64,000 nt of DNA from positions 62,001-126,000 of the forward strand of contig CAXHJY010001750.1 of NCBI GenBank assembly GCA_964016885.1, written 5' to 3'. A model generated the notes under the pieces. The model was given only the letters and a program-made list of their open reading frames with translations. It searched no databases and had not been told where the DNA came from. This document shows, piece after piece, positions 7,720-60,963 of the stretch. Position numbers and translations under genes: made by a program. This stretch comes from Eledone cirrhosa (lineage: Eukaryota). Each line of letters starts with the position of its first letter. Within the stretch, counting starts at the first letter, position 1.

Positions 7720-7890
7720 TCACTGCTGTATTTCACAAACGTATGTGGCTGGAAATAGTCCTTGCAGCCCTCGAGTATTCTCTCCTCTCCACCAGTTTTC
7801 GTCTTTCTTTTCTAAAACTGTGATTATCTCCCCCTTTTGTAGCTGCAACTCTTCGGGGTACTGAGGATCAAAGTCGAACGATGCTTTTAC
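7720..7890 (-). CDS. GRB2: GRB2/drk-like adaptor, last coding exon (C-terminal SH3)
   Basis: Translates VKASFDFDPQYPEELQLQKGEIITVLEKKDENWWRGENTRGLQGLFPATYVCEIQQ*. SH3 motifs (xFDF, ELxL, WWxG, GLFPxxYV). Acceptor tttctgttctccttgcAG at 7891; TGA at 7720-7722. The four exons total 597 nt in one frame. Confidence 0.95.
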   Translation of the reverse strand, partial: VKASFDFDPQYPEELQLQKGEIITVLEKKDENWWRGENTRGLQGLFPATYVCEIQQ

Positions 7891-10838: not shown

Positions 10839-10904
10839 TATTTCATTATACATATTTCAAGGGCCACCAAAGCAGATTATGGTGCGCTTTCATCAGATAA
10901 AATA
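10839..10904 (-). ncRNA. Type I hammerhead ribozyme (intronic, sense to GRB2-like gene)
   Basis: UAUUUUAU-CUGAUGA-AAGCGCACCA..UGGUGGCCCUU-GAAA-UAUGUA-UA|AUGAAAUA: 8-bp stem I, near-palindromic minimal stem III. Confidence 0.78.
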
Positions 10905-11126
10905 TAATATAGATTAGTTTTTATATGTTTAGTACAGATTAAAGGTTAAAGCAATAAATTTGTGATTTCACACTAAGTGGGATCATCTGAAACTGGGAAA
11001 AATCAATCTGTAGATGCAGGGTGAAAGCAAAAATGTTTTACTTAAACTTTTAATCTGTACTAATAATAAACATTTGCTCTACAGGTTTATATATATATAT
11101 ATAATGTAATAAACAACACAATATAA

Positions 11127-12270: not shown

Positions 12271-13054
12271 CAGGGAAATGGCCTTGCTCAGTATGTAGGA
12301 AAGGTGTAGGTAGGAACTCCATTCTCTGCCCCAAATGCAAACAATGGGTACACAAGAGATGTAGCGGGATCTCAGGAAGCTTAATTAAGAATGTAGGCTT
12401 CACATGCAGCAGCTGTACTGGGACAGCAAGCAGCAAACAAGTACCACCAATCTCTGGGAGGGCTCTGTAGAGACAGTAGACAGCTTCTGCTACCTAGGTG
12501 ACCGATTTAGCAGCGGAGGTGGGTGTTCAGAAAGTACAATAACTAGGGTAAGAACGGAATGGAAGAAGTTCAGGGAACTACTACCACTGCTAGCTGCAAA
12601 AGGCTTCTCCCTCAAAATGAAAGGCAGACTGTATGATGCATGTATCTGAACAGCAATGTTACATGGTAGTGAGACCTGGGCGCTGAAGGTGGAAGACTTA
12701 CGTAGATTAGAGAGAAACGAAGCCTGCATGCTCCGATGGATGTGTAACAGTAATATACGCGAACGACAAAGCATAAATGAATTGAGAGAGAGACTGAGCA
12801 TAAGAGGAATCAAATGCTGTGTGCAGGAGAGGCGGTTGCATTGGTATGGACATGTGATGCGTATGAAGGATGACAGGTGCAGAGCACTAGAAGCCGATGG
12901 AAACCGCGGAGTGGGGAGACCCAAGATGACCTGGGATGAGGTGATAAAAGCCGACCTTACCCAATTACACCTCTCAAAGGCGATGACACACAACCGTGAC
13001 CTCTGGCGTCACGCAGTAATACAGAGTTCCCGACCTCCCATGGGTACAAGCTGA
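12271..13054 (+). mobile_element. RTE-clade LINE 3' fragment
   Basis: VETVDSFCYLGD, WKKFRELLPLL, MLHGSETW, ERRLHWYGHVMRM, RGVGRPKMTWDEVI; internal stops. Confidence 0.9.
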
Positions 13055-13611
13055 AGCATATAGACAATATGCCCCCACACCCTCCCACTGCAAGGTGGTT
13101 GTGGATGTGTCACGGCAAAAAAGCACCCAGCCCACACTGTAAAGTGGACGTGTAGGCGCCATGAAAAAGCACCCAGCACTCACTGTAAATGAGGTTGGTG
13201 TTAGGAAGGGCATCCAGCTGTAGAAATCAAGCCAAATCAGTTCCTGTATGAGCAAGGCATGGTCAGCCGACCAGACACTGCCCACAACAGGACAACCCGT
13301 CTAACCCATGCTAGCGTGGAAGAACAGACATAAAACGGTGATGATGATATATCTGCCTGTCACAATGTAAAATAAAATATTTTGCTCAAGAACATAACAC
13401 ACTGCTTATCAGTCAATCACACACATATATAATGAATGTTTGACTTTTCCATGATACCATGGATTAGAAGGGATATTTTGAGGCAATGTTTTACAACCTG
13501 ATACCCTTCCTGTCACCAACCCTTTTAGTCAGTTCTCAAGACATACAGTGAATCTCTTCTAAGTCAGATACACACAGACACACACAGTGTGTGTGTGTAT
13601 ATATATATATG

Positions 13612-13930
13612 TTGGAAAATGTGTGATATCCTTGGTACAGTTAGGTATATTTGAAAAAAGGAAAAGAATGACTTCACTTGTAGTTCTAAATAATTTGATT
13701 TAATTTTATAATATTATGAGTTGGTAAGTTCTTTGTCAAACTGAGATTAGTTTGACAATCGCCACCGCCACCAATGAATGCGAGAAAGTTCTCCAGGAAT
13801 CTTTAAAATTCTTCCCACCAAAGTCAACAAAGAACTTACTAGATCTACCAACTCATAATATTATAATATTATAAAATTAAATCAAATTATTTAGAACTAC
13901 AAGTGAAGTCATTCTTTTCCTTTTTTTCAA

Positions 13931-13935
<5 letters not shown>
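13612..13935. mobile_element. Fold-back element with about 90-bp inverted arms in (TA)n
   Basis: Arms 13646-13736 / 13827-13935; an internally deleted hairpin copy at 43245-43410 shares the same flanking tail. Confidence 0.75.
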
Positions 13936-31369: not shown

Positions 31370-32780
31370 GTCAGGGTAGTTATGTCCTGAGTTCAAATCC
31401 TGCTGAAATTAGCTTTGCCTTTCATCGTTACAGGGTCGATAAAATAAAGCACCAGTCAGTAATGGGGTCAATTTAATCGACTTTCCCTTGCCCTTCAAAT
31501 TGCTGGCCTTGTGCCGAAAGTAGAAACAATTATTAGTAAGGGCAGTGGAATGTAAGTATCGGTAGAGTGTCGGACACTCTGCTTCGTGGCTTTACATTCT
31601 AAGTTCAAATCCTACCAAAGCTATCTTTGTTTTTTCATCTTTACGGAATCAATAACATAAAGTACCAGTAATGTACTGGTTTCATTTTAATTGACTTTCC
31701 TTTTCTCCCAAATTGTTGGCCTTGTGCCTAAATCAGAAACATTATTAATAGGGCGGTGGATTGGCAGTATCGGTAGAGGGTCGGACGCCATGCTTTGACG
31801 CATAGAGTTACGGCCCTTGCCATTCTGAGTTCAAATCCCGCCGAGGTTTACTTTGCCTTTCATCCTTATGGGGTCGATAAAATAAAGTAATAGCTGGCCT
31901 TGTGCCAAAAGTAGAAACAATTATTAATAGGGTTAGGGTGGTGAAATGGTAGAATTTGTAGAATGTCAGATAAAATTCCATTGCAGTATTTGTTCTGGCC
32001 CTTTACATTCTGAGTTCAAATCCCACTGAGGTCTAATTTGCCTTTTGTCCTTCTGAGATTGATAAAATAATGTACCAGTCAAGTAAGCTTTAACCCTTTA
32101 GCATTCAAACGGGCCATATCCGGCCAGAAATGACTCACCTCTTTCTGTTCAAATCAGCTGTAACTGGCCACTCATACTGATGTTAAGGTATTATTCTCAA
32201 AATATATAACATCAAAATCTCATAGATTTGATATTATGTGAGATAAAGCCTTTACTGTGAAAATACAATAGTATATATAGTCAGTATGAGAGGCCGGTTA
32301 CAGCCGGTTTGAACAGAAAGAGATGAGAGAATTCTGGCCGGATATGGCCGGTTTAAATGCTAAAGGGTTAAAAAAACAAAACAAGAAAAAAGTAGTGGTT
32401 AGGCAGAATCGTTAAAGTGTTGAACAACTACTTTGCAACATTTGTCCTGAATCTTTTTTTTCTGAGTTCAAATTCCACTAAGGCCAATTTTGCCTTTCAT
32501 TTATTTGCCTTTCCTTATGGGGTCGATAAAATAAAGTACCAATGAAGTACTGAGGTCAATTTAATCAACAACCCCCTCCCTCTCATAAATTGCAGGCCTT
32601 GTGCCATTGCTAGAAAGAATTACTATTTGGTTGGTAGATTTGGCAAAATCATTAGATAGATGCTTTGCAATATTTTGGGGGTGGGTGGAATGGTGTGGGA
32701 CTCTTTATGTTCTGAATTAAAATGCCATCAAGGTCAACTTTGCTTTTCATATCTTATAAAACCACTAAATAAAGAGCCAG
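31370..32780 (+). mobile_element. Array of about 6 copies of the same SINE (further single copies 15848-16027 +, 44716-44900 +, 51230-51415 -, 52994-53183 -, 63199-63382 -)
   Basis: Same consensus; 31749-31923 is near full length. Confidence 0.85.
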
Positions 32781-39997: not shown

Positions 39998-40760
39998 CAT
40001 ACATAGTGATGGTAGCAACTTAGTAAAGGATTGATGAAATAAAACTCCCACACACTTGTCTCATGTGAAGAACCCAAAAAATTAAATGTTAAACAGTGGT
40101 GGTGGTGGTGGTGGTGGTGGTGGTGATGATTATATTATAAATAACTAACTGACCAAAAAAAACCAAAGGATTTTTAAATAAGTCAAATCTTAGTTTTGAA
40201 TAGCTAGGCTACTTTTCTATGGCAAATGAAAGTGTTGCTGCTGTTTTTGTTTTTGTTATGTTAGTGATGAGAAGAATCTGTTGGAGAGGAAGTTAGGGAA
40301 GGATGTGGTTTTGTTAAGGATTGGGTAAAGTTGTTTTGTGTGTGGTGGAAGCGTGAAAGAGTAAAGATGACAGGATGAAGAGGAGTTAAGTGCTCTCTAG
40401 AGTTATCAAGTTCAAAGAGACAAAGAATGTTGTCATAGTAACAGCATAGTAAGCACAAACATGAAATAGAATAGTCATCTCCAGCCTGGGTCTTTTCATA
40501 TGAAAAGAAAGTGTTTGCTATAATATTTTGAAAAAAAAGGGGGTTCCTATTTTAATATGGAAATATATAGTAATAATAATAAATGTGAAGACTAAAATCC
40601 AAAGAGGGCTCGATAAGGATAAATATATATCAAATATATAAGAACCCTAGAGAAAATATTTATTAAAACAACAGATTAAAGTTTAAGCAAAGAATCACTG
40701 CTCACCCTTAACGGGATCTTCTGAAACTCTTATTATTATTATTATTACTATATATATATG

Positions 40761-42979: not shown

Positions 42980-45099
42980 ACACGCCATATGTGTGGTGAA
43001 AGGGATATGGTACACACAATATTTACAGGTGGGTGAGAAACACATCATCTTAAATAACCTGACATACACTGAGGTAGAGGAAGGGGGCGAATAGTTTTAT
43101 AGAAGTGGAAGGAAGAGGTAGAAATGATAACAAAACAGGACACAACGAAACAGCCTTTTGAACCTGCTAAAAACAACAGCCAAATCTCCTTCAAATCACA
43201 CCATACTGATTTTTAAAGGAGACGTTAGATAATTATATATATATTGGAAAATGTGTGAGACCCTTGGTACAGTTAGGTATATTTGAAGAAAGGGAAAGGA
43301 TGACTTCACTTGTAGTCCTAAACAATTTGATTTAATTTTATAAAATAAAATTAAATCAAATTGTTTAAAACTACAAGTAAAGTCATTCTTTTCCTTTTTT
43401 TTTCAAATAAATAAATATATATATATATAACATTTGCATGCAGATGCTATAGTCACGATGCGAAGGCCTTTGATCATAGGTATACAGGACAATGTAAGGC
43501 ATGAACCAAAAAAGAAGCCAGCTCTTCATGTGATCGTTCGAATTATTAGAAATAGCAGTTACATACCCATTCAATCATGCTCTATATCATCATTAGGTAA
43601 TGTAATATTCGATACATGATTCTCGAAACACCACCACCACCCCCAAAAATACAAACAAAGAAGGGATGGTCATTGCTCCAACGCTTTTCATAGTAAACAT
43701 TTGGACCTAACTGGGGCTAAACAACAAATGAGTGAAATGAGTCAAACGTGAAAATAGAACCAGAATCTTCCTTCAACCCTCCTTAAAATGAATAGGAAGG
43801 ACATATTTTATAGTGTAATCCTAGATACAGTTTGAAATGTAAAAAAAAAAAAATGGACAATTATAGTCAAAGATGGCTCAATCATAGGTTTGCCAGATCA
43901 AAAATGAGATGGCGGAGCAGGCCCTTGTTTTTATCCATTGTTCCATGATTGCACGGGGCAGACAATGGTTGGGTGGATTTTTATCCTGGTTCCAAGTGAC
44001 GTTAAGCGACTGAAAGTACAAAACTTTCCTCCTTCCCCTTCTTCTAACTTAGTAGTTCGACAAACAGAGAGCGATGAAATAAATACCAAGCCAAAAGAAA
44101 ATATAAATTAGTACTAGGGTTGATATATATGATCACAGTAAAAAGAAAACGAAAAGGCCTAGCTATATATATGTATATATATATATATATATATAGAGAT
44201 AGATATATTTCTTTATTAGCCACAGGGGCACAAAAGAAGGGGACAAATACAAAGGGGGAAGTTTACATACAATAAAAACGTGTAAAATGTTATCACAGAT
44301 GGAATTTAAAAGTTAGTCGATTTTCCCCAATAGAGGGAGAGAGTTTATATGGGTAACACAGACCCCCGAAAAAAATGTGCAACCCTCATCTCCAGGAGTA
44401 CGAAGAGCTTGTACTCCTTTCCTCTCCTCCTCCTTTTCCTCAACCTACAGGCTGATATAGAGAGAAGGCCCATTCACTCGGGCCATTCTCGCCACTTTCA
44501 CCCACCTTTCATAAAACTTGCTGGGGTACAGCACCTCTCTCTCCATCCTGATTCTTCTTCCAAAGTGGTATTTGAAAAAAAGAATCAGTTGTTAGAGATA
44601 GATAGATAGATAGATATATATATAGAGAGAGAGAGAGATATCCCCAGTTAAATTGGGGGTAACCGCAGTTTAAAAAGGTACTCGATACATTAGTTGAGTG
44701 TAAGCATCATTATTTTTGGCAGTATCGGAAGAGGGTCGGACGCCATGCTTTGACGCATAGAGTTACGGCCCTTGCCATTCTGAGTTCAAATCCCGCCGAG
44801 GTCAACTTTGCCTTTCATCTTTACGGGGTCGATAAAATAAATAAAGTACCAGTAATACACTGGATAATTGCTGGCCTTGTGCCAAAAGTAGAAACAATTA
44901 TTTAATATAGAAATGGTTTCTACAGTACTAGAACTGTATCATTCCTACGAATGAAACAGTTTTAGCCCTGTAGAAGCCATTTCTATATTAAATGATATGT
45001 ATGAATATATATACATATATATGTGTGTGTGTGTGTCATTTCACTCCAGAATGAAAACATAGCTAGCATATATATATATATATAATGAAAAATTGAACG

Positions 45100-48000
45100 G
45101 GAACAAAACAGAGAGGCAGTACAACAAATGTTTATTAATTTCACGCTCTTGAGAGTGGGGTGGTGGTGGGGAACGACGTTTCGGGCATAAGCCCTTCTTC
45201 AGGTGAAAAGTGTGTGGGAAGAGAGTTCAAAGGGTGTGTAGGGGAGTGGTGGAGAGACATATAGCAAAAAGAGGGTGAGAGGAAACGGTGCAAATGAAAT
45301 TAAAAATAAAGGCATGATCAAAATAAAATTAAAATGGGGTAAAACAGGTGGTGGAAGGGTGTGGGGCGTGTAGGGGTGGTAGTGGGTGAGTGGGGAGAGG
45401 GAGACGGGGTGTCCGAGCGAGGAGGGCTGAAGGTGGTGTGTGTGTGTATGTGAAAGCAAGAGTTGGGGGAAGAACGGGGTTGCATGTTCAGGAAGAGGTG
45501 TGTGTGGGGTGGGGGGGGGGGGGTGCGTGTGTGGATAAAGGGGTGGGGGGAGAGGAATCCGGAGGCTGAATGTGTAAATATGTGGTGGTACGCACGTGTG
45601 TGTGTGGTGTTTAAGCGTGTTGTGGGTGTAGGTGGCGTGTGGGAAAAAAAAAATTATTTTTGGGTGTGTCATAAAGGTGATTCCTTAAGATGTGGTGGGA
45701 TGCTTAATTCCGGGATCAAGGTTCACACACGTGTAAAGAGATTGGTCTGAAGAGGGGAGATGTGGGGTGCGCGCGCAACAGGAAGTGGTCAAGGCAGCAG
45801 GAGTGTGATGTGTCTGTGGTCAGAGGGCATAGAAGCAGTAGGGTAAAATGGTGAGTGTGTGTTGTGTGTCTGTGTGTGCAGGGAGGTGGTCAGAGGGCAT
45901 AGCAGCAGTAGGGTAGAATGGTAAGGGGGAGAGGATGGGTAGGTGTGAAAGTTGGAGTGAGGAGGCGGTGTGTGTGTATTAGTAGAGGTGTTAGTGGGAT
46001 GAGTGTGTGTTTGAGAAAGGGTGTGGGTGGAGCGGGGAGAGAAGGGTGTGGGGGCCGATGGAGGGTGTGTGGTGTACTGGTGTGTGTGTTTGGTGAAGGG
46101 GGTGTTAGTATACAGGAGGTGGAGAAAGGGTTGAATGCGGGTGTGAGTGGGGGGTCAGTGGTGGTAGGTGGTGTAAGAGGGTGTGTGTGTACGTGTGCGT
46201 AGGGTTGGGGGGTGTTAGTGATGTTAGTTGCGTGTAGGGTGGGTGGTGTAAGTGGGTGTGTGTGTTCGTGTGCTTGGGGTCAGGGGGTGTTAGTGATGTT
46301 AGTTGCGGGGTGGTGGGGTGGATGTGTGGTGGTGAGGGTTAGTGGTGGTGGTAGTAGGGTGTGTGTTTAGTGTGAGCGCGTGTATATATGTGCCGGTGGG
46401 TGTGTGCGTGTGATAAGGAGGGGGGAGGAGAGAAGGGAGGGATGTAAGTATGTTAGTTGGGGAAGGGTGGTCGGATGTGGGGTGGAGTGGAGGTGTTAGT
46501 AGTGTTAGTTGTGGGGTGGGCGGTGAAAAGGAGGGGTGTGTTAGTGGTGTTAGTGGGGGATATGTGTGAGTGGAGGGGGGCGGTCGAAGGCTAAAGGAAT
46601 AAGGGTGGGGAGTTCAGGCCGGGGGGGAGTGTGGGTCTGTAAGATGAAGATGGTTCGTTGTTCAACTCTGAGGAGATTGGCCGGTGTTCCGTGGCATTGG
46701 AGTAGGCCACAGACTGTGAGATGGCGTGCGGAATGTCCAGGGGCACCAAAGTGGCGGGCGATGGGGGAACTACCACCGAGACAAATATCCCGGAGGTGCT
46801 CAGTGAATCGGTCCGCCAGGCGACGTCCAGTCTGTCCGACGTAAGTCGCGCTGCACTCCGTGCAGCGAAGTCCGTAGACTAGGTTGGAGGAGGTGCAGCG
46901 GAAGGCATGCCGGACAGAGAGAGTGTGGCCGTTGGGACCCTGGAAGGTGGTCGTGTTGGTGATGTGGGGACAGATGTTGCAGCGGGGCGTAGAACAGGGA
47001 AAGGAACCGGGGTGGGGGGGCGTGGGTTGGGGGTAGGGAGCTGTGGACGAGGAGGGTGCGGAGATTGCGTGCGTGTTTGAAAGAGGGGAGTGGTGGGGCT
47101 GGGAAGATGTGGGAGGTGGAGGGGTATGGTGGAGGGGTGGTAGGTGATGGGGAAGGGGAGACGGTGGGTGGGTGGCGTGAGGTGAGGGTGGTGGAGCGGT
47201 GGACAGCACGGGCGCGGGTGAGAGCGGTGTGAACGAGAGAGTGGGGGTAACCTCTGCGGATGAAATGGCTGACTAGGGAAAGGGCCTGGGACTCAAAGTC
47301 GGCATCTCGGCTCCAGATCCTGAGGAGTTGGTAGTAGGGAATAGAGCGTTTAGTGTGTGTGGGGTGGGAAGAGGTGAATCCGAGGTAAGAGTGGAAGTCG
47401 GTGGGTTTGAAGAAGGCGGAGGTGACGTTCGAAGGCGACGGAGATGTCTAAGAAGTGGACGTGGGTGGTGGAGATAGAGGTGGTGAAGTGGAGGGAGGGG
47501 TGGAAGGAGCAGAAGGAGAGAAAGGAGTCGAGCTGTTCTCGGGTGAGGGTCGTGGCTCCGATACAGTCGTCGATGTAACGACCGTACAGTTCGGGCGTGG
47601 GGCCGGTGTACTGGGCAAAAATTTGGGCCTCAACATGGCCAACAAAAAGGTTGGCATAGTTTGGGCCCATGGCTACCCCCGTGACCTGTTGGTAAAACTC
47701 ACCCGAGAAGGAGAAATAATTGAGGGTGAGGACCAGCTCGGCGAGGCGAAGGAGGGTGGGGGTGGAGGGAATGGGGGAGGAGCGAAGGTCGAGGTAGTGT
47801 TTGAGGGCGCGTAGGCCGTCGGCGTGGGGGATGACGGTATAGAGGGACTTGATGTCTAGGGTGAAGAGGAAGGGCTGTGGGCCGGGTGGGTAGGTGAAGG
47901 AGTCGAAAAGGCGCAGGGCGTGGTTGGTGTCGGAGATGTGGGAGGGGAGGGTGGTGATAAGGGGGGGGGGGGGATGGAGTCGAGAAAGGCGGAGATGAGT

Positions 48001-48210
48001 TCGGTGGGGCAGTTGCAAGCGGAGACGATGGGGCGGCCGGGGTTGTCGGGTTTGTGGAGTTTGGGGAGGAAGTAGATGGTGGGGGTGCGGACGATGAGGT
48101 GGGAAGCGGTGGGAGGGAGGAGGAGACAAGGTGTTGGATGGTGGAGGAAACTTGTTGTTGGTAGAGGGGTGTGGGATCGGAGGGTAGAGGGCGGTAGAAG
48201 AGGGGGTTAC
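45100..48210 (-). mobile_element. Penelope-like retroelement (Neptune-type), 5'-truncated and frameshifted; RT + Cys linker + GIY-YIG endonuclease + long 3' region
   Basis: ORF 47350-48129 has RT motifs LFTLDIKSLYTVIPH, GVAMG, YGRYIDD, VHFLDISV. ORF 46550-47209 has CSTPRCNIC, CTSSNLVYGLRCTECSATYVGQTGRRLADRFTEH (GIY-YIG) and IARHF. Hammerhead near the 3' end. Confidence 0.93.
45173..45204 (-). ncRNA. Minimal hammerhead ribozyme of the Penelope pLTR
   Basis: Minus strand CUGAAGA-A-GGGC-UUAU-GCCC-GAAA-CG-UC: intact core, 4-bp stem II, palindromic ACGU stem III, weak stem I. Confidence 0.8.
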
Positions 48211-48223
48211 GGATATATATATA

Positions 48224-48580
48224 TGCAGAGGTTATATTTAATTTGTTGGACAAGCTTAAACATTTTTTATAACTGATATAAAGCACTCAACAAATGGGTG
48301 GATAGTGGATATCCAGCGAATTTCAACCGTTGAGGTTGTCTTTTTCCGGGTATGTCAATATTTATTTATAAAACAAATCTGTATTTTATCTGATGAAAGC
48401 GCACCATAATTTACCTTGGTCGCCCTTGAAATATATATAATAAAATAATTATGGTTTTATAAATATAGTTTCCATTTATTAATATATTGTATTTACTCCA
48501 CTAACTTGTTGAGTGCTTTATAACAGTTATAAAAATGTTTAAGCTTGTTGAATCCCAACAAATTAAATATAACTTCTGCA
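48224..48580 (+). mobile_element. Non-autonomous hammerhead-bearing fold-back element in (TA)n
   Basis: About 70-bp inverted termini (48224-48295 vs 48506-48580), internal hammerhead, flanked by (TA)n. Second copy on the minus strand at about 10705-10910. Confidence 0.75.
48382..48447 (+). ncRNA. Type I hammerhead ribozyme inside a fold-back element
   Basis: UAUUUUAU-CUGAUGA-AAGCGCACCA..UGGUCGCCCUU-GAAA-UAUAUA-UA|AUAAAAUA; perfect 8-bp stem I; same family as 10839-10904. Confidence 0.8.
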
Positions 48581-49404
48581 TATATATATATGTGCAACCA
48601 CGCAGCACGCCATTTTTCATATATATATATATATATACTCACACGCACGTGTGTATAGAACTATCTAGAAACTGAAAGTGCTCACACATAATACAATATG
48701 TGTGTATGTCACTGCATGTTTTTCTACGGTCTTCCATACATCATTGTATGCTAGTTGCTAGTAAAAAGATATTAGGAGAGAGAGAGAGATGAAGTGAGCG
48801 CCACTACAACTAGTGAAAGTCGTTGTAGTAGTCGGGGCGATGGCGGCGGTGGTGGAAGGTGATTTGATGTTCGGTTATGGGGTCAAGTAAAATAGAAATC
48901 TTTAAGTGCAGATATTAAACAAGTGTCAGTGAGAGAAGGGGAGGTTGGGAGGGAGTAACAGGTGAAATAAGGGGTGTAGTGGTAGGAATAAGAGCAATAG
49001 ATACCGGATGAACTTGAGAAATGGTATGGTGGTGGTCACAGTGGTGTTGGTGTTGAGGTAATGAAAGTTGAGGTGGTGTTAGTGACGTGTGGTAGTGCTG
49101 TTGGTGGTGGTTGCGACAGTAGTATAAATGGTAATGTTCGTTGTGGATGAAGAAAAAGTAAAACAGCCACAGCAAAGCAACAACAACAAAAGAAAAGCGA
49201 CAATAAACAAAAAGGAAAAGGCTCTGATCCCTTAAACAACTGTTTTTACGATTTTAGGTGTGAATGTTCCGTCTGAAAAGACAGACCGTGCCATGTCAAG
49301 TTACAATAGTTACTTGACATGGCACAGTCTGTCTTTTCAGATATGTCCCAAGGCTCTGATACCAACACCATAAACACAGAGCTGGCATATCTAAGAACTG
49401 ACTA

Positions 49405-49451
49405 ACTGCCTGATGAGGTCATAACCATTCAATCGAAATATATATAGCAGT
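49405..49451 (+). ncRNA. Minimal type I hammerhead ribozyme
   Basis: ACUGC-CUGAUGA-GGU..AUC-GAAA-UAUAUA-UA|GCAGU; perfect 5-bp stem I, weak stem II, palindromic stem III. Confidence 0.72.
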
Positions 49452-49504
49452 AAATAAAGGATTATGAGTTCATGCAATTGACTTATGTTTCGTCACTATA
49501 TATA

Positions 49505-49540
<36 letters not shown>

Positions 49541-49833
49541 CAGAAGCCTGACATTATTTATGTAAGCGGACGGTACTTGATTTAGGAGCCGCAGAAACCC
49601 AAATACTGGATTTTACCAACCTTCCAGGGGTCCGGGTAAATTTTCAATACCCGAATTACTTGATCGTTTTTTGGGCTATGCGAATGATTGTTTAACCATC
49701 GTCTCAGTGTGTTTGGCGTTTAACGTTTGTCATAGCTCTGGTTCATCTGAACCATTGAGCACTTGCCTCACATCTCGGAGGTTGCTTTTCGTTATTTCGT
49801 GGGCCGAAATGCGAATCTCGATAATTTATGTTT

Positions 49834-49874
<41 letters not shown>

Positions 49875-49884
49875 TATAAGTTAA

Positions 49885-50105
49885 AACAGAAAACAAAAAC
49901 AAAGAGTGCAGTACAAAGTGTTAGTATTAGGTTCACGCTTGAGAGTGGGGGTGGGACGCGACGTTTCTGGCATAAGCTCTTCATCAGGAGAAAAGTGGGA
50001 AGGAAAAGAGTTCCGAGGGTGTGAGGGGGAGTGGTGGAAAGACATTAAAAAGGGGGTGGGAAATGAAGGGAAAGAAAAAAAAAATTAAAATTAAACAAGT
50101 GGTGA
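49885..50105 (-). mobile_element. Second, diverged copy of the Penelope terminal (pLTR-like) segment
   Basis: Aligns by eye with 45100-45330 (aacaaaac..ttcacgct..gagagtgggg..gacgtttc.ggcataagc.cttc.tcagg.gaaaagtg..ggggagtggtgga), same orientation. Confidence 0.8.
49958..49990 (-). ncRNA. Minimal hammerhead, degenerate (pLTR copy)
   Basis: Minus strand CUGAUGA-A-GAGC-UUAU-GCCA-GAAA-CG-UC; stem II damaged. Confidence 0.6.
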
Positions 50106-50126
50106 ATATATATAATATAGAAATGG

Positions 50127-50174
50127 CTTCTACAGGACTAGAACTGTTTCATTCGGAGAGAAATCATCAGGAAG
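50127..50174 (-). ncRNA. Type I hammerhead ribozyme
   Basis: CUUC-CUGAUGA-UUUC(UCUCC)GAAU-GAAA-CAG(UUCUAGUC)CUG-UA|GAAG; all three stems present but with a U-U closure of stem II. Related degenerate copies near 42485, 44950, 54350, 55575, 55750. Confidence 0.7.
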
Positions 50175-50840
50175 TCGACTAAGTCGAGTAATATGGTGGT
50201 AGGAGAGGGTGGAGGTCATTGGTTGATGGATTTAACGCGCGTCACCAACCAATAAACGTAATGAAGGAGTAACCAATCTTGTTATCTTATTTCACTATAA
50301 TACACTCTGTCTAGCTCTACACCTCGACACTTACGCTGCTGGTACACGTGTCTGGAACGCTCAACCACTTGAACGTTAAGTTCTTAAGCAAGCTGTTCGG
50401 TTGATCGAACAACTGTAACATTGATCGTCGATATCGACGATGGTCCATTCCACCCCACCCATCCACATAAATACATGCATGCATACTTCCACTGTCTAAA
50501 TATAGTGAATGAAGGAAAAATCCCAATCAACTGAGACCATCCTTATCATTTTCATGACCAAAACTTCCTGTAGGAGTGTCCAGTCATAGAAGCATGAACC
50601 CGATATCCATGTTTTGCACATTGACCAGTGAAGATACACAGACCTAATGGTGACTCATTTCATAGTCTTTTTTGTTTTGTTTTGTTTTGTTTTGTTGTTT
50701 TTTTCAGCTAGTATTTGCACACGCCCACTACGCAGGTAACAATTGCAACACTTGACATTTTCACCAAAACGATACATCCCTTGATGTATCTTGAGCTGAG
50801 ATCACCAGTGCTTCGTTATCTCTTTTTCGATCACTGCAGT

Positions 50841-50996: not shown

Positions 50997-52414
50997 GCTG
51001 CAGAACCAAACCCCTAAGACCTTTCATTCAAATATTTGTCGTTCATTCACCAATTATTCATGCAATGCCTTTCCAACTACTGCATGTCTTTTGGCAGCAA
51101 TGACTCAAGACTCTTCTGTACTATCGAGCTGTATGTGTATGCATGTGAGTATACATCCATATATGACTGAATGAATACATATCTATAAAATTCTGTTAAG
51201 TTAAAAAGTCCTCACTCAAAAATAAATATAATTGTTTCTACTATTAGCACAAGGCCAGAAATTACTCAGTACATTACTGGTACTTTATTTTATCGACCCC
51301 GTAAGGATGAAAGGCAAAGTTAACCTCGGCGGGATTTGAACTCAGAATGGCAAGAGCCATAACTCTATGCGTCAAAGCATGGCGTCCGACCCTCTACCGA
51401 TACTGCCAATCCACCATACCCGAAGAATATAATGGAAATATGACAGTGGAAAAAAAAGCAGCGGGGAGGAGAGACAGTCTGCACCACTTTGTAGGAACAG
51501 TAGCTTTCCTTCACCTAGTACAATATATGTAAAGCAAAATTCAACAGTCCAAACTTTGGCCACAAATAATAAGAGAAGTGTTCAGCACTATGTATGTGCG
51601 TGTTGTTAGATCTCCGTCGGATCCGATGAAAAATGTTCCAATTTTATGATCGATGGAACAACCTGCTCGTGAAATCAGGATACCCTTATAGTTCTGAATG
51701 AGGTTCAGGGAGACACGGTTGAGCCTTTGAATTACAAAGTACAACTCATAATTTTTTTCAGTTTGGTGGACTGAAGCAACGTGAAATAAAGTGTCTTTCT
51801 CAATGATACAATGCAGCGTCAAGAATCGAACTCACGACCTTTAGAATCGTGAACCGAACATCCTAACCACCATGCCAAGCATGCATATATATAAGGACGA
51901 CGTGTTACTATTTAAGACCATTATTCAACCTAGTACCCTATAACTCTATACTCAAAAAAAAAAAGTAGGGTGAAGATATAAGGATTATCTGCCCTACAGT
52001 TAAGTATCTACTGACCGTAGGGCATAAAATCCTTATATTTCTATATACACAGCCATCAAGCACATACGGAGATATATAGATATGTGTGTGTGCGTGCTTG
52101 ACGGCTGAGAGGAAAGAAGTAGAGTTTAAATATTCATTTTAAGGCTAAATAGTGAGTCTTGTTACACTGGAGTTTGAATGTTAGTTCTTGTCTGTCTGTC
52201 TGATGACCTTGTGGTAAACAGGCAAAACTCATTATGTAGCCTTAATAAAATGAATATATATACATCGCTCCTTTGTCATGCGTCTCTCAGAGACCAATGT
52301 CTGTCCTTAGGGCATCAACATATGTCATCCTTGGTCTCACTCTTCAAGTAGGACAGAGACCGTTGGAGAGAACTCATCCGTGGATCTCAGGAATATTACC
52401 CGCCCTATATATAT

Positions 52415-52595
52415 ATAGGAAAAAGTATGATCCCAACGGCAGAGCTCAAGCCGTTTCGACGGCTATTTCTGGACGAAACGGCTTGAGCTCTGCCGTTGGA
52501 GTCATACTTTTTCCTATTACCCACTCTACTACCCTAAGTATTGAGTACTCTGGTGCGTTATGGTCCATCTGGTTCCTTACCACATCTCCTTCGTT
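52415..52595 (+). mobile_element. Fold-back element with 3' half of a hammerhead
   Basis: About 43-bp inverted arms containing GAAA-CGGC..GCCG-UU, then an about 80-nt tail ending in (TA)n; paralogue at 54844-55020. Confidence 0.7.
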
Positions 52596-52872
52596 ATATA
52601 TATATATATATATAAAGTCTGTCTTAATCCAGAAGGCTCATTTGGGCGGTGCTTATCCCGGTTTCATGGCGTGAAGCGACTGAGAGTACAAGGCACCCCA
52701 CTGGACAGGAAACCAGTCCATTGCAGAGTTAATTAAACCCCCAGCTATTGCTGGTACTCATTTTCAGCTGAGTATACCGGAGTAACGTAAAATGAAGTGT
52801 TTTGCTCAAGAACACAACATGCAACCCAGGAATCGAACCCACGACATTATGATCGTAAGTCTAACACCCTTG

Positions 52873-52926
<54 letters not shown>

Positions 52927-54427
52927 GCAAACATTTCATAATGCGTTCCACAGATTCCATCAATTTATCACCACTCGCTCCGTTGTTCTAAATAATTGTT
53001 TCTACGTTTGGCACAAGGCCAGCAATTACCCAGTGCATTACTGGTACTTTATTTTATCGACCCCGTAAGGATGAAAGGCAAAGTTAACCTCGGCGGGATT
53101 TGAACTCAGAATGGAAAGGGCTGTAACTCTTTGCGTCAAAGCATGGCGTCCGACCCTCTACTGATACTGCCAATCCACTGCCTTGTTCTAAATAATAACC
53201 ACGAACAAGATATCTATCTAACGCAGACCAAAATTCCACAAATCCTGGTATGGAGGTGCTTGGGGGTGGGCTGGGGCTGAGGGTAGTGGTGATTATTGAC
53301 CCCCGGGGTTAAATTTGTTACATATTATTATTATTATCAATCCGAGAACCAAAATTAGATAGAAAGAACTAGTATATGATTTGAACTAGGAACCGAGAGA
53401 AGGTTCGTTCAGTAGTAGGTCGAGTCGAGACTAGCAGAAATCGTTAAAAGGTTAAATAAATAAGGTAAAGGAAAGCAAATATATATATATGAGTTTATGT
53501 GTGTGTGTGTATGTGTGTGTGTATATAAATATATATATATGTATGTATTTGTGTTGGTCGTCGTCACTCCAAGACAGTAAGAACACTGAACAAGTGTTTC
53601 ATATAATGTTCGGTAAGAGAGTGACGGAGGAAAGGAGAGGAGGGGGGTAAAGTACGAGGCAGACAGTCAGTCGGTGTATATAGGCCTCTGTCTGTGTGTC
53701 TGTGTGTGTCTATGCTGCTTTACTAACCATACTTGCTGATAATGGTGAGTGATGATGACGATGATGATGATGATAAATAACGGTGCGGCTGATTGTCGTG
53801 GTGGTGGCGGCGGCGGCGGTAACGATGGTTGGCCTTTCTACCATCTATCTACCACACTACCAGTAAGTTTTAAAAACCACCAACAGAGCAAAGAACCAAT
53901 CTCTCTCTCTCTCACACAGAGACAGACAGAGAGAGAGATATATATATATACGTATATATATATATTGAAGAGAAGTAATTTCTAAAAGACTAATTCTATC
54001 CGATTCTGTGGTGAAATCACCAGATATGGAATGAAACTGCGCCAGTCCTGTAGGAGTCACTTCAATTCGAAATAAAATCCATTACCCTCCCTCACTTCAA
54101 ATGCTGTCTCCTGCCGTTCTTATATATACACTACGTGTGTTTGTGGATATCATCATCATCATCAAATATATATATATATATGGAGGAAAGGTTAGTTGTT
54201 ACCAGTATGACCGTTATTCAACTAAGTACTCAATACTTTAAAGTGTAGTGGAGAGGGCATTTATCACAAGACCATTTGAGCTGTCGAAACAGTTTAGGCT
54301 CCACTGTCAAAATCACATGCCATGAATAATGCATACACACATTATACAAGACTAAAACTGTTTCATTCGTATGAACTCCCCTGGAATGTCCATATATATA
54401 TATTGTACTACAATAAAACTCACCTCC

Positions 54428-54489
<62 letters not shown>

Positions 54490-54843
54490 GGAGGTGAGTT
54501 TTATTGTAGTACAATAAAGCAATGCAGATATCGGATAAGAAGCACTCTACAGTTTGTAGGACTGGAGTATACATAATATATAAGAACAAAAGATGGTTAA
54601 AATACATGGAACTCTTTTAACCATCTTTTGTTCTTATATATATATATATATATATCATATCAATTTTGAATTGACCGCATGCGGTCTTTTTTACGAGTAT
54701 GTCACATTTTATACATCTAATATTGTATTTTGTCTGAATAAGGCATACTATAAATTAGTATCCTTGAAATATATATAACGAAATATATTATGATGCTATA
54801 GTGATATATTCCATTTATTACTATTATTATTTTATATATATAT

Positions 54844-55020
54844 ATAGGAACAAGTAAGACCCCGACGGCTGAGCTCAAGCCGTTTCGACGGCTAATTCTG
54901 GAGTCGAAACGGCTTGAGCTCAGCCGTCGGGGTCTTACTTGTTCCTATTACCCACTCTACTACCCTAAGTATTGAGTACTTTGGTGCGTTTTGGTCCACC
55001 TGGTTCCTTACCACATTTCC
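54844..55020 (+). mobile_element. Fold-back element with 3' half of a hammerhead
   Basis: Perfect 46-bp arms (54844-54889 / 54903-54948) with GUC-GAAA-CGGC..GCCG-UC; tail nearly identical to 52517-52590; (TA)n flanks. Confidence 0.75.
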
Positions 55021-55073
55021 TTATATATATATATATATATATATAAGTCCACCTGGTTCCTTACCACATTTCG

Positions 55074-55371: not shown

Positions 55372-55807
55372 TTACAGGGTTGTGTCACGGGGCTAAGACA
55401 GTTTAAAAAAGGGTACTTAATACATTGGTAGAGTATAGGCACCTTTATTATATATCTCATCATCATCGATTAACGTCCATCTTCCACACTAGCAGGGGTT
55501 AGACGGGCCCTATTTTGAGGCAAGTTGTGTCGGGTGACCGTGTCTCATTCATATAGAGGTGTTATATAGGACTTCTACAGGACTAAAACTGTTTCATTCA
55601 TATGAAATCACCATGAATGTGTTATATATATATATATATATATATAGAAGTTATTCCCGGGTTCAATCAGGGCTAACCACAGTAAGTAAGGTACTCAATA
55701 CATAGCAGAGTATAAATATTTAATATAGAAAATGGCTTCTACAGGATTCCTGATGATTTTTCCCGAATGAAACAGTTCTAGTCCAATAGAAGCCATTTCT
55801 ATATTAA

Positions 55808-59532: not shown

Positions 59533-60963
59533 TCTTCACATTTATCCCCACCACCACCACCATCGCAATAACAATAACCGTCACTATTGTAAATCCAAAC
59601 ACCAACCATTCTAGAACCCTGTTGCCAAGGAGGAGCACTAGATGGCATTGCCCACTATTTTTCGATGATGCACCCTTAGAATTATAAAATAGAGTTTATG
59701 GGGAGAGGGGGAAGAAAAAAAAAAAAGAAAAAAAAACGTCCTGAAATACGTTCTTTGTGGAAAGATTGCCCACCCAGAATTTTCTAAAATACCTCACCCA
59801 CAAACACCAAAACTAGATGACGCCCTGCAACCACTCCAACTGGGATGAAGTCATGTCGGATTCACTGTACATAGGAAAAAAAGAGATGGTATGATTGTCT
59901 GGAACGTCTAGCACTAACCATTATCACTGTTGTTGTATTTAACGTGCAAGTGGCTGAGCATTCCACAAATACGCATACCCACAACACAGCTCCCAGGGAG
60001 ATTTGGTGTGACAGTACGATAAGATTGGTTCTCTAAATTACTACACTGAGTGGACTGGAGCAATGTGAAATAGAATCTTGTTTAAGGATACAACATGCCA
60101 TCGAGAATCAAACTCAAGACCTTATGATCATAAGTTGAACACCTTAATCACAAAGTGACATACCTTAATAGTGAGGCTTATAAACTGTAGTTAAATTTAA
60201 TTTGTGTTAAATTTTTTAATACATACTGTGTTGTACATTTAACCCTTTAGCATTTCAACCGGCCATATCCAGCCAGAATTTTCTCACCTTTTTCTGTTCA
60301 AACCGGCCATAACCGGCTGCTTTTACCAACGTTAAGGTATTGTTCTCAAAATAAATAATGTCGTCATCAAAATCTCATAAATTCGATATAATGTGAGATA
60401 AAGCCTTTACCGTAAAAATACAATAGTAATGTAAATGCTAAAGGGTGTGATAAATTTTCCTTCTTTGTAGACAAATATTAGAAAGCTTACTAAGACCCAT
60501 CCTTAGTATATATCCAGATCAAGATTGAACCCCTAGCTAGGATCTTAGCCATCAAACAACATGCCTTAACTCTTTAGCATTTACATTACTCTATATATGC
60601 TATTATATTTTCACAGTAAAGGCTTTATCTCACATAATTATCTCACCTATGAGATTTTGATATTATTTAAACATCAGTATGAGCAACCGGTTACAGCTTG
60701 TTTGAATAGAACAAGGTGAGAGAATTCTGGCTGGATATGGCCGGTTTAAATGCTAAAGGGTTAACAGAAGATCTCCAAGACAGCCATGTTTTGGTTGTCA
60801 GGTGACATAAATAGGGCATATCAAAACAAAGAGACAGTAAAATATGGCTATGATAAAATATGAACAAAGTAGACAAATTAGTTATTGATTATAGCATGTT
60901 TTAAAGTCATTTTACGCAGTTAAACCAGCCTTGAGGCTCCATGACATAGGGTTCTGTCTGGGG

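Follow-up and report, generated by a model that had tools for sequence, protein, structure and literature searches.

Two fold-back insertions in the 64,000-nt stretch of Eledone cirrhosa DNA analysed here (the window) each consist of an inverted arm without a tail that meets, head to head, a tailed forward copy of the same sequence, and on balance we favour an origin of each from two separately primed cDNAs of a Penelope-like element (PLE). Three findings count for this reading: the inverted arm is the longer one in 3 of the 3 tailed fold-backs that could be resolved, the family has two fixed 3' ends, and the two arms of an insertion share alleles. Such a layout, a truncated copy in inverted orientation plus a tail at only one end, is standard for Penelope-like elements, and in that respect the structures are a known kind of genomic debris. 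How the inverted repeats and tails of PLEs form was described as "still undefined" in 2021 (PMC8557442), and the abundant short inserts studied here are a useful handle on this open question of mechanism.

Architecture of the fold-backs

Copy A opens with a tail-less inverted arm (54844..54902, minus strand), made up of 46 nt that are mirrored by the forward copy and 13 nt of native upstream sequence that form an apparent loop; the outer end of this arm is the family's proximal 3' end and adjoins (TA)n. A 5'-truncated forward copy follows (54903..54948, plus strand), reading GTC-GAAA, a 5-bp hairpin and TC and ending at the proximal end, and it continues into a 74-nt tail found on this side only (54949..55022, plus strand), which reaches the distal 3' end and then (TA)n. 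The (TA)n run behind A also contains a tiny additional piece (55047..55073, plus strand) that repeats the distal part of the tail. Copy B has the same order of (TA)n, inverted arm, forward copy, tail of ~74 nt and (TA)n. Its tail-less inverted arm (52415..52474, minus strand) includes 14 nt of native upstream sequence and has 1 nt in common with the forward copy (52474..52593, plus strand), which runs from C-GAAA, passes into the tail at 52518 and then into (TA)n, and is of a different subfamily from that of A. The arms of A (54844-54889 and 54903-54948, 46 nt) are 100% complementary with a spacing of 13 nt, and those of B (52415-52458 and 52474-52517, 44 nt) are 95% complementary. These two fold-backs had been reported in the earlier note together with a third near 44902, and inverted repeats were recovered at all three places, the third spanning 44897-44996.

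By BLAST, A and B belong to one family (90.7% over 183 nt), and the whole insert measures only ~180 nt. The copies stand 2.4 kb apart with equal orientation and outer ends, and their junctions agree within 1-2 nt; their flanks are unrelated apart from (TA)n, of which the AT-rich, animal-type window DNA is full. Counting the G of GTCGAAA as +1, A has an inverted arm extending to -13 and a forward copy beginning at +1, and its junction homology is 0 nt; in B the inverted arm extends to -14 and the forward copy starts at +3, with a homology of 1 nt. Each arm has private sequence, 13-14 nt on the left and the 74-nt tail on the right.

An older relative of A and B, copy D (54182..54310, no strand assigned), sets an inverted tail-like piece head to head with a forward core piece (22 of 30 positions identical). 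Its right side is disrupted, and for this reason copy D was dropped as proof of a zero-overlap junction. The core piece (54279-54310) stops exactly after GTC, the predicted cleavage site, in what is a single example with the right side disrupted. Separately, a perfect tail-to-tail inverted pair of 30 unique nt surrounds a long (TA)n run at 54401-54516. Assembly error may have produced it, or it may be genuine; in reads, the A family too shows a tail-to-tail joint, from 54948 to 55022.

Two fixed 3' ends in reads and contigs

With positions 54884-55022 as reference, we compared 4 of 14 sequence runs at 80% likeness. The tables of this comparison are represented by 40 of 129, 12 of 26, 12 of 20 and 24 of 506 rows, and counts of junctions drawn from them are lower bounds. 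The family accounts for 13,481 of 17.1 million contigs in run X1, 21,479 of 12.5 million reads in X12 and 22,185 of 12.8 million reads in X13; the latter two are reduced-representation libraries, whose read counts are not copy counts because an AATT site lying 8 nt upstream of the arm seems to be where most of their reads begin (judged from a median loose length of 8). In run X6, from another organism, a related tail family is represented by 250 of 17.6 million contigs, mostly less than 95% alike and with tail variants like those of copy D. Scans with the family pattern found no locus in contigs from metagenomes or from prokaryote genomes.

Depth on the reference begins abruptly at 54903. The letters before this position are the reverse complement of the A loop in 9,515 of 21,479 reads (X12), 9,104 of 22,185 reads (X13) and 156 of 13,481 contigs (X1), and further upstream those reads continue with sequence unlike the right arm of A. 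In A's own orientation the loop has a depth of 0-6 (X12) and 2-25 (X13), compared with about 12,000 just downstream. Because ~9,000 reads per run show its reverse complement before 54903, the 13-nt "loop" is native upstream sequence of the family, carried backwards on the left arm. A search of the 64-kb window with the upstream motif gave two matches, and these are the inverted arms of A and B only. The turn in A and B had earlier been placed at the loop of a hammerhead stem II; this assignment falls, as the loop is native upstream sequence and the GAC beside it merely mirrors GTC.

Tail-less ends at 54948, running directly into (TA)n, are found in 3,738 reads of X12, 3,453 reads of X13 and 117 contigs. 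Since only so few reads end there, most reads with the reversed loop must stem from tailed forward copies. At the distal end, 1,190 and 1,455 reads and 53 contigs extend from 55015 through a short extension into (TA)n (end about 55022). The family is thus shown to have two fixed 3' ends separated by 74-80 nt, and it is with the proximal one that the inverted arms of both A and B end on their outer side.

These ends bear on the idea that the host repaired the insertion break by templated fold-back synthesis, with the element's enzyme not involved. Short templated inverted duplications are reported at yeast DNA breaks (PMC11724301), and a DNA-transposon-like repeat of the window has a fold-back form as well (32089-32372). 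We regard host repair as very improbable for A and B, for it leaves unexplained why the outer end of the arm coincides with a fixed end of the family that thousands of reads share, and why the arm contains element sequence that is missing from the forward copy.

Junctions recovered from the reads are biased to the geometry of A and give no frequencies, the reference mainly detecting junctions with a spacer as in A, and the outer ends of their inverted arms are mostly not visible. Within these bounds, forward starts across reads and contigs range from -7 to +90, with starts also at +23 to +90. Opposite-strand joints, at least ten of them, connect 54903 or 54904 with 54925-54987, and in 8 of the 12 joints listed the reversed loop is joined to forward starts at 54945-54992 after 1-7 extra letters, several of which extend the reversed native sequence. 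In two of the tables, at least nine and at least three rows fall at 54897-54903. Several junctions near +1 (starts -7, -6 and -5) hold native letters missing from A and have homologies of 1-2 nt, so that these variants arose independently; another, in 19 of 21 X13 reads, has molecules that end at 54894 and a C at 54903. Junctions near GTC-GAAA therefore arise repeatedly, yet they are not restricted to that spot, and homology across junctions is 0-2 nt. An apparent cluster of joints at 54942 was not used, as it may be an alignment artefact of a variant with a 1-nt indel.

Subfamily alleles shared by the two arms

Over the 44 arm positions, A and B differ in both arms at four sites (8, 14, 21 and 27), compared with two arm-private changes, one in each arm of B (17 and 18); under independent mutation, this pattern has a chance of ~2e-6. 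The earlier observation that the arms co-vary within each copy is borne out for A and B. It does not extend to the fold-back at 44897 (C1), where 5 of 45 sites differ between the arms and one of these five is polymorphic in its family.

Three of the four co-varying alleles of B are common in the A/B family (54922 T in 32%, 54935 A in 28% and 54941 T in 24% of X12 reads), and so are two of B's tail alleles (about 45% and 43%). Because A and B differ at 5 of the 6 listed family sites whose variant is present in at least 24% of X12 reads, and A additionally bears one near-private allele, the two copies are of different subfamilies, with both arms of each carrying the subfamily's alleles. If sites are independent, the probability that a family member drawn at random agrees with B at five polymorphic sites is 0.01, and with A 0.08; linkage between sites would lift these values to at most about 0.24 and 0.36, respectively. 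Since the alleles that co-vary in B occur commonly in the family as standing variants, each inversion probably formed during insertion, from a template lineage of its own. The proposal that each was templated from its own copy during insertion is to that extent upheld, both by these common alleles in the two arms and by the several junction sequences near one spot. The allele sharing fits one RNA or sister RNAs equally.

That A and B are ordinary MITEs with terminal inverted repeats, or artefacts of assembly, is extremely unlikely. Perfect arms such as those of A would suit either reading, and palindromes beside (TA)n trouble assemblers. In a MITE, left arms would group with other left arms; in the comparison of A and B each follows its own partner instead, and the inverted repeats do not stand at both termini, the right arm being internal and continuing into the tail. 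Most family reads lack the arrangement of A, and related junctions occur in raw reads of another sample (the 19 X13 molecules ending at 54894); it is such related junctions, not the exact junction of A individually, that the reads confirm.

A further alternative holds that the hairpin is itself part of the mobile unit, or that A and B are a local duplication, with the arms kept alike by template switching or gene conversion. The short distance between the copies, their equal orientation and ends, the agreement of their junctions and the rarity of the arrangement in reads speak for it. It has to contend with the different subfamilies of A and B, their unrelated flanks and the several junction sequences near +1; moreover, homogenisation is not general, since older fold-backs keep private differences between their arms (5 of 45 in C1 and several in F2, described below). 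We consider this alternative improbable.

Hammerhead-like features of A and B

In the forward copy of A, GAAA, a 5-bp hairpin and TC resemble the 3' half of a hammerhead, with GAAA, a stem III and a UH triplet all present. The stem III-like hairpin pairs in copy D too, but the changes fall at CpG sites. Directly upstream of GAAA, CUGANGA is absent from A, B and the 44897 copy. The earlier note was right in reporting the 5' half as missing; its replacement by an inverted copy of the 3' half does not apply to A and B, where the sequence upstream is native. Because this native sequence lacks CUGANGA (none is found in the 30-nt upstream consensus of the A/B family, agreement 0.62-0.69), the 5' half has not been replaced at the turn; it lies further upstream or does not exist.

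Rfam gave 0 matches at the gathering threshold, and its 114 sub-threshold E-value matches are mostly generic hairpins, with no hammerhead among them. The native strand of A/B folds as one long hairpin. With a candidate 3'-half-like motif as the sequence evidence, derivation of A/B from a hammerhead is unproven. A type II hammerhead was rejected, there being no CUGANGA downstream. Also rejected was a non-LTR retrozyme, which by definition (10.64898/2026.07.22.740005) comprises at least two tandem units that all carry a complete hammerhead; A and B occur singly, as dispersed inserts, and lack a full hammerhead.

Other fold-back families in the window

We examined nine fold-backs, comprising 8 of 47 inverted-repeat rows and one more (C2) found by BLAST; the remaining rows are of low complexity, MITE-like or without paralogues. 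C1 (44897..44996, plus strand) has arms of 48 nt that are 88% complementary (44897-44944 and 44949-44996), turns at a native 3-bp stem II (TTC/GAA) and has no tail. It gives no BLAST match to A or B and hence represents a separate family, C. For this copy, then, the earlier claim of a turn at stem II stands, while its kinship with A and B and the co-variation of its arms do not. C2 (55717..55813, plus strand) keeps CTGATGA and turns 3 nt upstream of it, its inverted arm ending in stem III. A third copy of family C (50109..50185, minus strand) has a complete type I hammerhead motif with stems I, II and III and no inverted arm. Relatives with an intact hammerhead, which the earlier note asked for, exist in this sense for family C, where CTGATGA is kept at 55750 and 50170. 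Most copies of family C are 5'-truncated within ~10 nt of the hammerhead 5' half (42477, 54342, 55572, 16722 and 55750), and reverse transcription therefore often ends there.

The fold-back of family K (10929..11090, plus strand) carries on its tail-less inverted arm a spacer that includes a hammerhead-like 5' half, CAGATGA; its forward copy starts ~5 nt before GAAA, and its tail is ~28 nt long. The 43-nt spacer matches a paralogue at 40690-40760 only when reversed (score 28 versus 10), and about 3,000 random windows gave no match. CAGA(T/A)GA stands in place of CUGANGA in two copies of this family (10929-11090 and 40654-40740) and is possibly a core variant. In family F, F1 (13611..13935, minus strand) has a tail of ~37 nt on one side, and F2 (43243..43409, minus strand) has the outer end and tail of F1 with a 3-nt spacer; no hammerhead was seen in either. 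The arms of F1 (13654-13935) show no substitutions over ~70 nt and have 9-nt and 8-nt indels at small palindromes, which suggests slippage in separate synthesis passes. Family G (48225..48579, plus strand) has an intact minimal hammerhead motif at 48390, and its inverted arm ends well downstream of the motif. Family E (52124..52263, plus strand) keeps CTGATGA in a degenerate core, with the turn upstream of it.

Across this set, only C1 turns at a native stem II (1 of 9); C2, E and G keep the core, turn elsewhere and have the spacer in forward orientation. Where a core with GAAA is present, the forward copy starts 1-11 nt before it in 4 of 7 fold-backs. The tail-less inverted arm reaches further 5' in all three resolved tailed fold-backs (A, B and K), and F2 is a tie; the tail-less symmetric fold-backs (C1, C2, E and G) say nothing on this geometry, "forward" being set there by length.

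Our own hammerhead descriptor found five complete motifs in the window, compared with a mean of 0.05 and a maximum of 1 in 60 shuffles. These type I or minimal motifs, at 10896 (-), 11194 (-), 48390 (+), 49410 (+) and 50170 (-), belong to several families, and none is recovered by Rfam at gathering level. The motif of family C at 50170 (-) has the core motifs and stems I, II and III.

Penelope-like elements in the window

A decayed Neptune-type PLE occupies 45109..50088 (minus strand), with its RT and GIY-YIG frames in pieces and with direct terminal repeats. RT motifs lie at 47350-48231, and a Zn-finger and GIY-YIG at 46550-47272, the GIY-YIG match having E=0.004, below the curated cut-off; the RT frame gave no Pfam or PDB match. 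The terminal repeats are 76% alike over 209 nt and contain minimal hammerhead cores (45179-45202 and 49964-49987), and the element is split by the family G fold-back at 48225. It shows that PLEs were active in this genome. BLAST gave no match between it and A/B.

Comparison with EN+ PLE insertions, as described in PMC8557442 and PMC3846280, suggests that A and B are likely Penelope-like insertions, an identity drawn from layout alone, with no RT gene linked to A/B. The published insertions consist of an inverted 5'-truncated copy and a one-sided tail of 30-40 bp, and A/B agree with them in the head-to-head inverted arm adjacent at the 5' end, the tail at one end, strong 5' truncation and microsatellite targets. 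A one-sided tail is present in A, B, F1, F2 and K; truncation is variable, with starts from -7 to +90, and (TA)n lies on both sides. Several families neighbouring A/B also have hammerhead motifs. A/B differ in the size of the insert (~180 nt), in having no linked ORF, in the length of the tail, which is 74-80 nt in A and B (~37 nt in F and ~28 nt in K), and in a tail-less arm that reaches further 5' than the tailed copy, a feature not given by self-priming from the tailed cDNA. With respect to the PLE hammerheads described in PMC4209133, families C and G and other window copies are alike in having type I or minimal motifs, whereas in A/B only the 3'-half-like motif is seen and the 5' half was not found.

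Self-priming and the two-cDNA reading

A 2013 proposal derives inverted pLTRs from self-priming (PMC3846280): one cDNA folds back and copies itself, and an endonuclease would then trim the product at the proximal site. This accounts directly for identical arms. C1, with its turn at native stem II and 3 nt of homology, and the forward-oriented spacers of C2, E and G agree with it, and the proximal end of A has an ATT motif, at which the Anolis enzyme preferentially cuts. The tailed fold-backs argue against it. In a snap-back at stem II, as the earlier note envisaged, the tailed cDNA must reach further 5' and pair at the turn, and A, B and K show the opposite, with homologies of 0 and 1 nt in A and B. 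Because each arm holds sequence that the other lacks, simple snap-back is excluded in these three unless the spacer was later flipped by arm recombination or partly deleted. Self-priming thus has to invoke a further event for every resolved tailed fold-back (3 of 3), and even with the spacer flipped back, A would have 0 nt and B 1 nt of priming homology. If the arm ends at 54948, the contig joints with starts at 54945-54992 would overlap it by no more than 4 nt (outer ends not visible), and the arms of C1 differ at a family-polymorphic site. We judge self-priming, with the later flip or deletion that it requires, to be unlikely. As to whether the fold-backs are a trace of how inverted pLTRs form, the PLE layout matches; the self-priming route is the one already published, and the geometry of A/B argues against it.

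In the two-cDNA reading that we favour, the element's protein would nick both target strands, and each nick would prime one cDNA. The tailed cDNA would start at the distal site and the other at the proximal site; their template would be a single RNA or sister RNAs from one source locus, both would stop early, and end-joining would seal them. The recurrent forward stop just before GAAA would be an RT stop at the hairpin and not priming at stem II. We infer these priming, stalling and joining steps from the structure of the products: two cDNAs from two fixed ends would give the fixed outer end, the one-sided tail, the allele sharing, either spacer orientation and the short homologies. Counting against the reading, A and B have a near-identical junction, yet the depth of this arrangement in reads is at most 25 versus about 12,000, a coincidence that is unexplained; C1 fits snap-back; and the A/B tail of 74-80 nt exceeds the published 30-40 bp.

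Two known systems offer parallels. In vitro, the Poseidon protein of Anolis cuts and extends both strands, uses two RNA start sites, one at either end of the tail, and probably acts as a dimer according to prediction (PMC11167929); shared with A/B are the two 3' positions bounding the tail, the AT-rich targets, the cutting and extension of both strands and a hammerhead-like motif upstream of the starts. The accessible part of that report does not deal with inverted arms, and its transfer to fold-backs would be by analogy. For L1, twin priming and dual priming have been described (PMC2837659), likewise with two cDNAs from two target nicks and little or no microhomology at the join. L1 differs in that its second primer pairs with internal sites that vary from case to case, usually with a deletion as the result; in A/B the second start is fixed near the 3' end, with the consequence that the arms often overlap and form a hairpin.

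A narrower version is possible, and we put it forward only tentatively: the inverted repeats of PLEs with one-sided tails would arise by twin priming on one RNA that has two fixed sites for the start of RT, with the leading cDNA, which lacks the tail, reaching further 5' and the tailed one stalling behind it or at the hammerhead region before the two are end-joined. If true, one-RNA twin priming would explain the inverted pLTR, the asymmetry of the tail and the identity of the arms, and would replace self-priming. The same-RNA and two-RNA versions fit the A/B data equally. In the literature covered, mainly that openly accessible, we found no application of twin priming to PLEs.

Other features of the window

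The repeats of the window probably lie in introns of a host gene, and a short exon-like stretch at 7720-7870 (-) encodes what we take to be an SH3-like peptide. The sequence at 12650-13054 (+), which gave no Pfam match, is presumably a fragment that resembles the C-terminal end of a LINE protein of RTE type. Further small hairpins, for which the window holds no paralogues, are present at 51976-52038, 54577-54641 and 49272-49341, the first two flanked by TA. An abundant MITE-like repeat of ~220 nt with short terminal inverted repeats is found at 32089-32372 and 60239-60764 and in about ten other copies; in one copy the left 92 nt form a fold-back, and at one locus two units stand head to head as a dimer.
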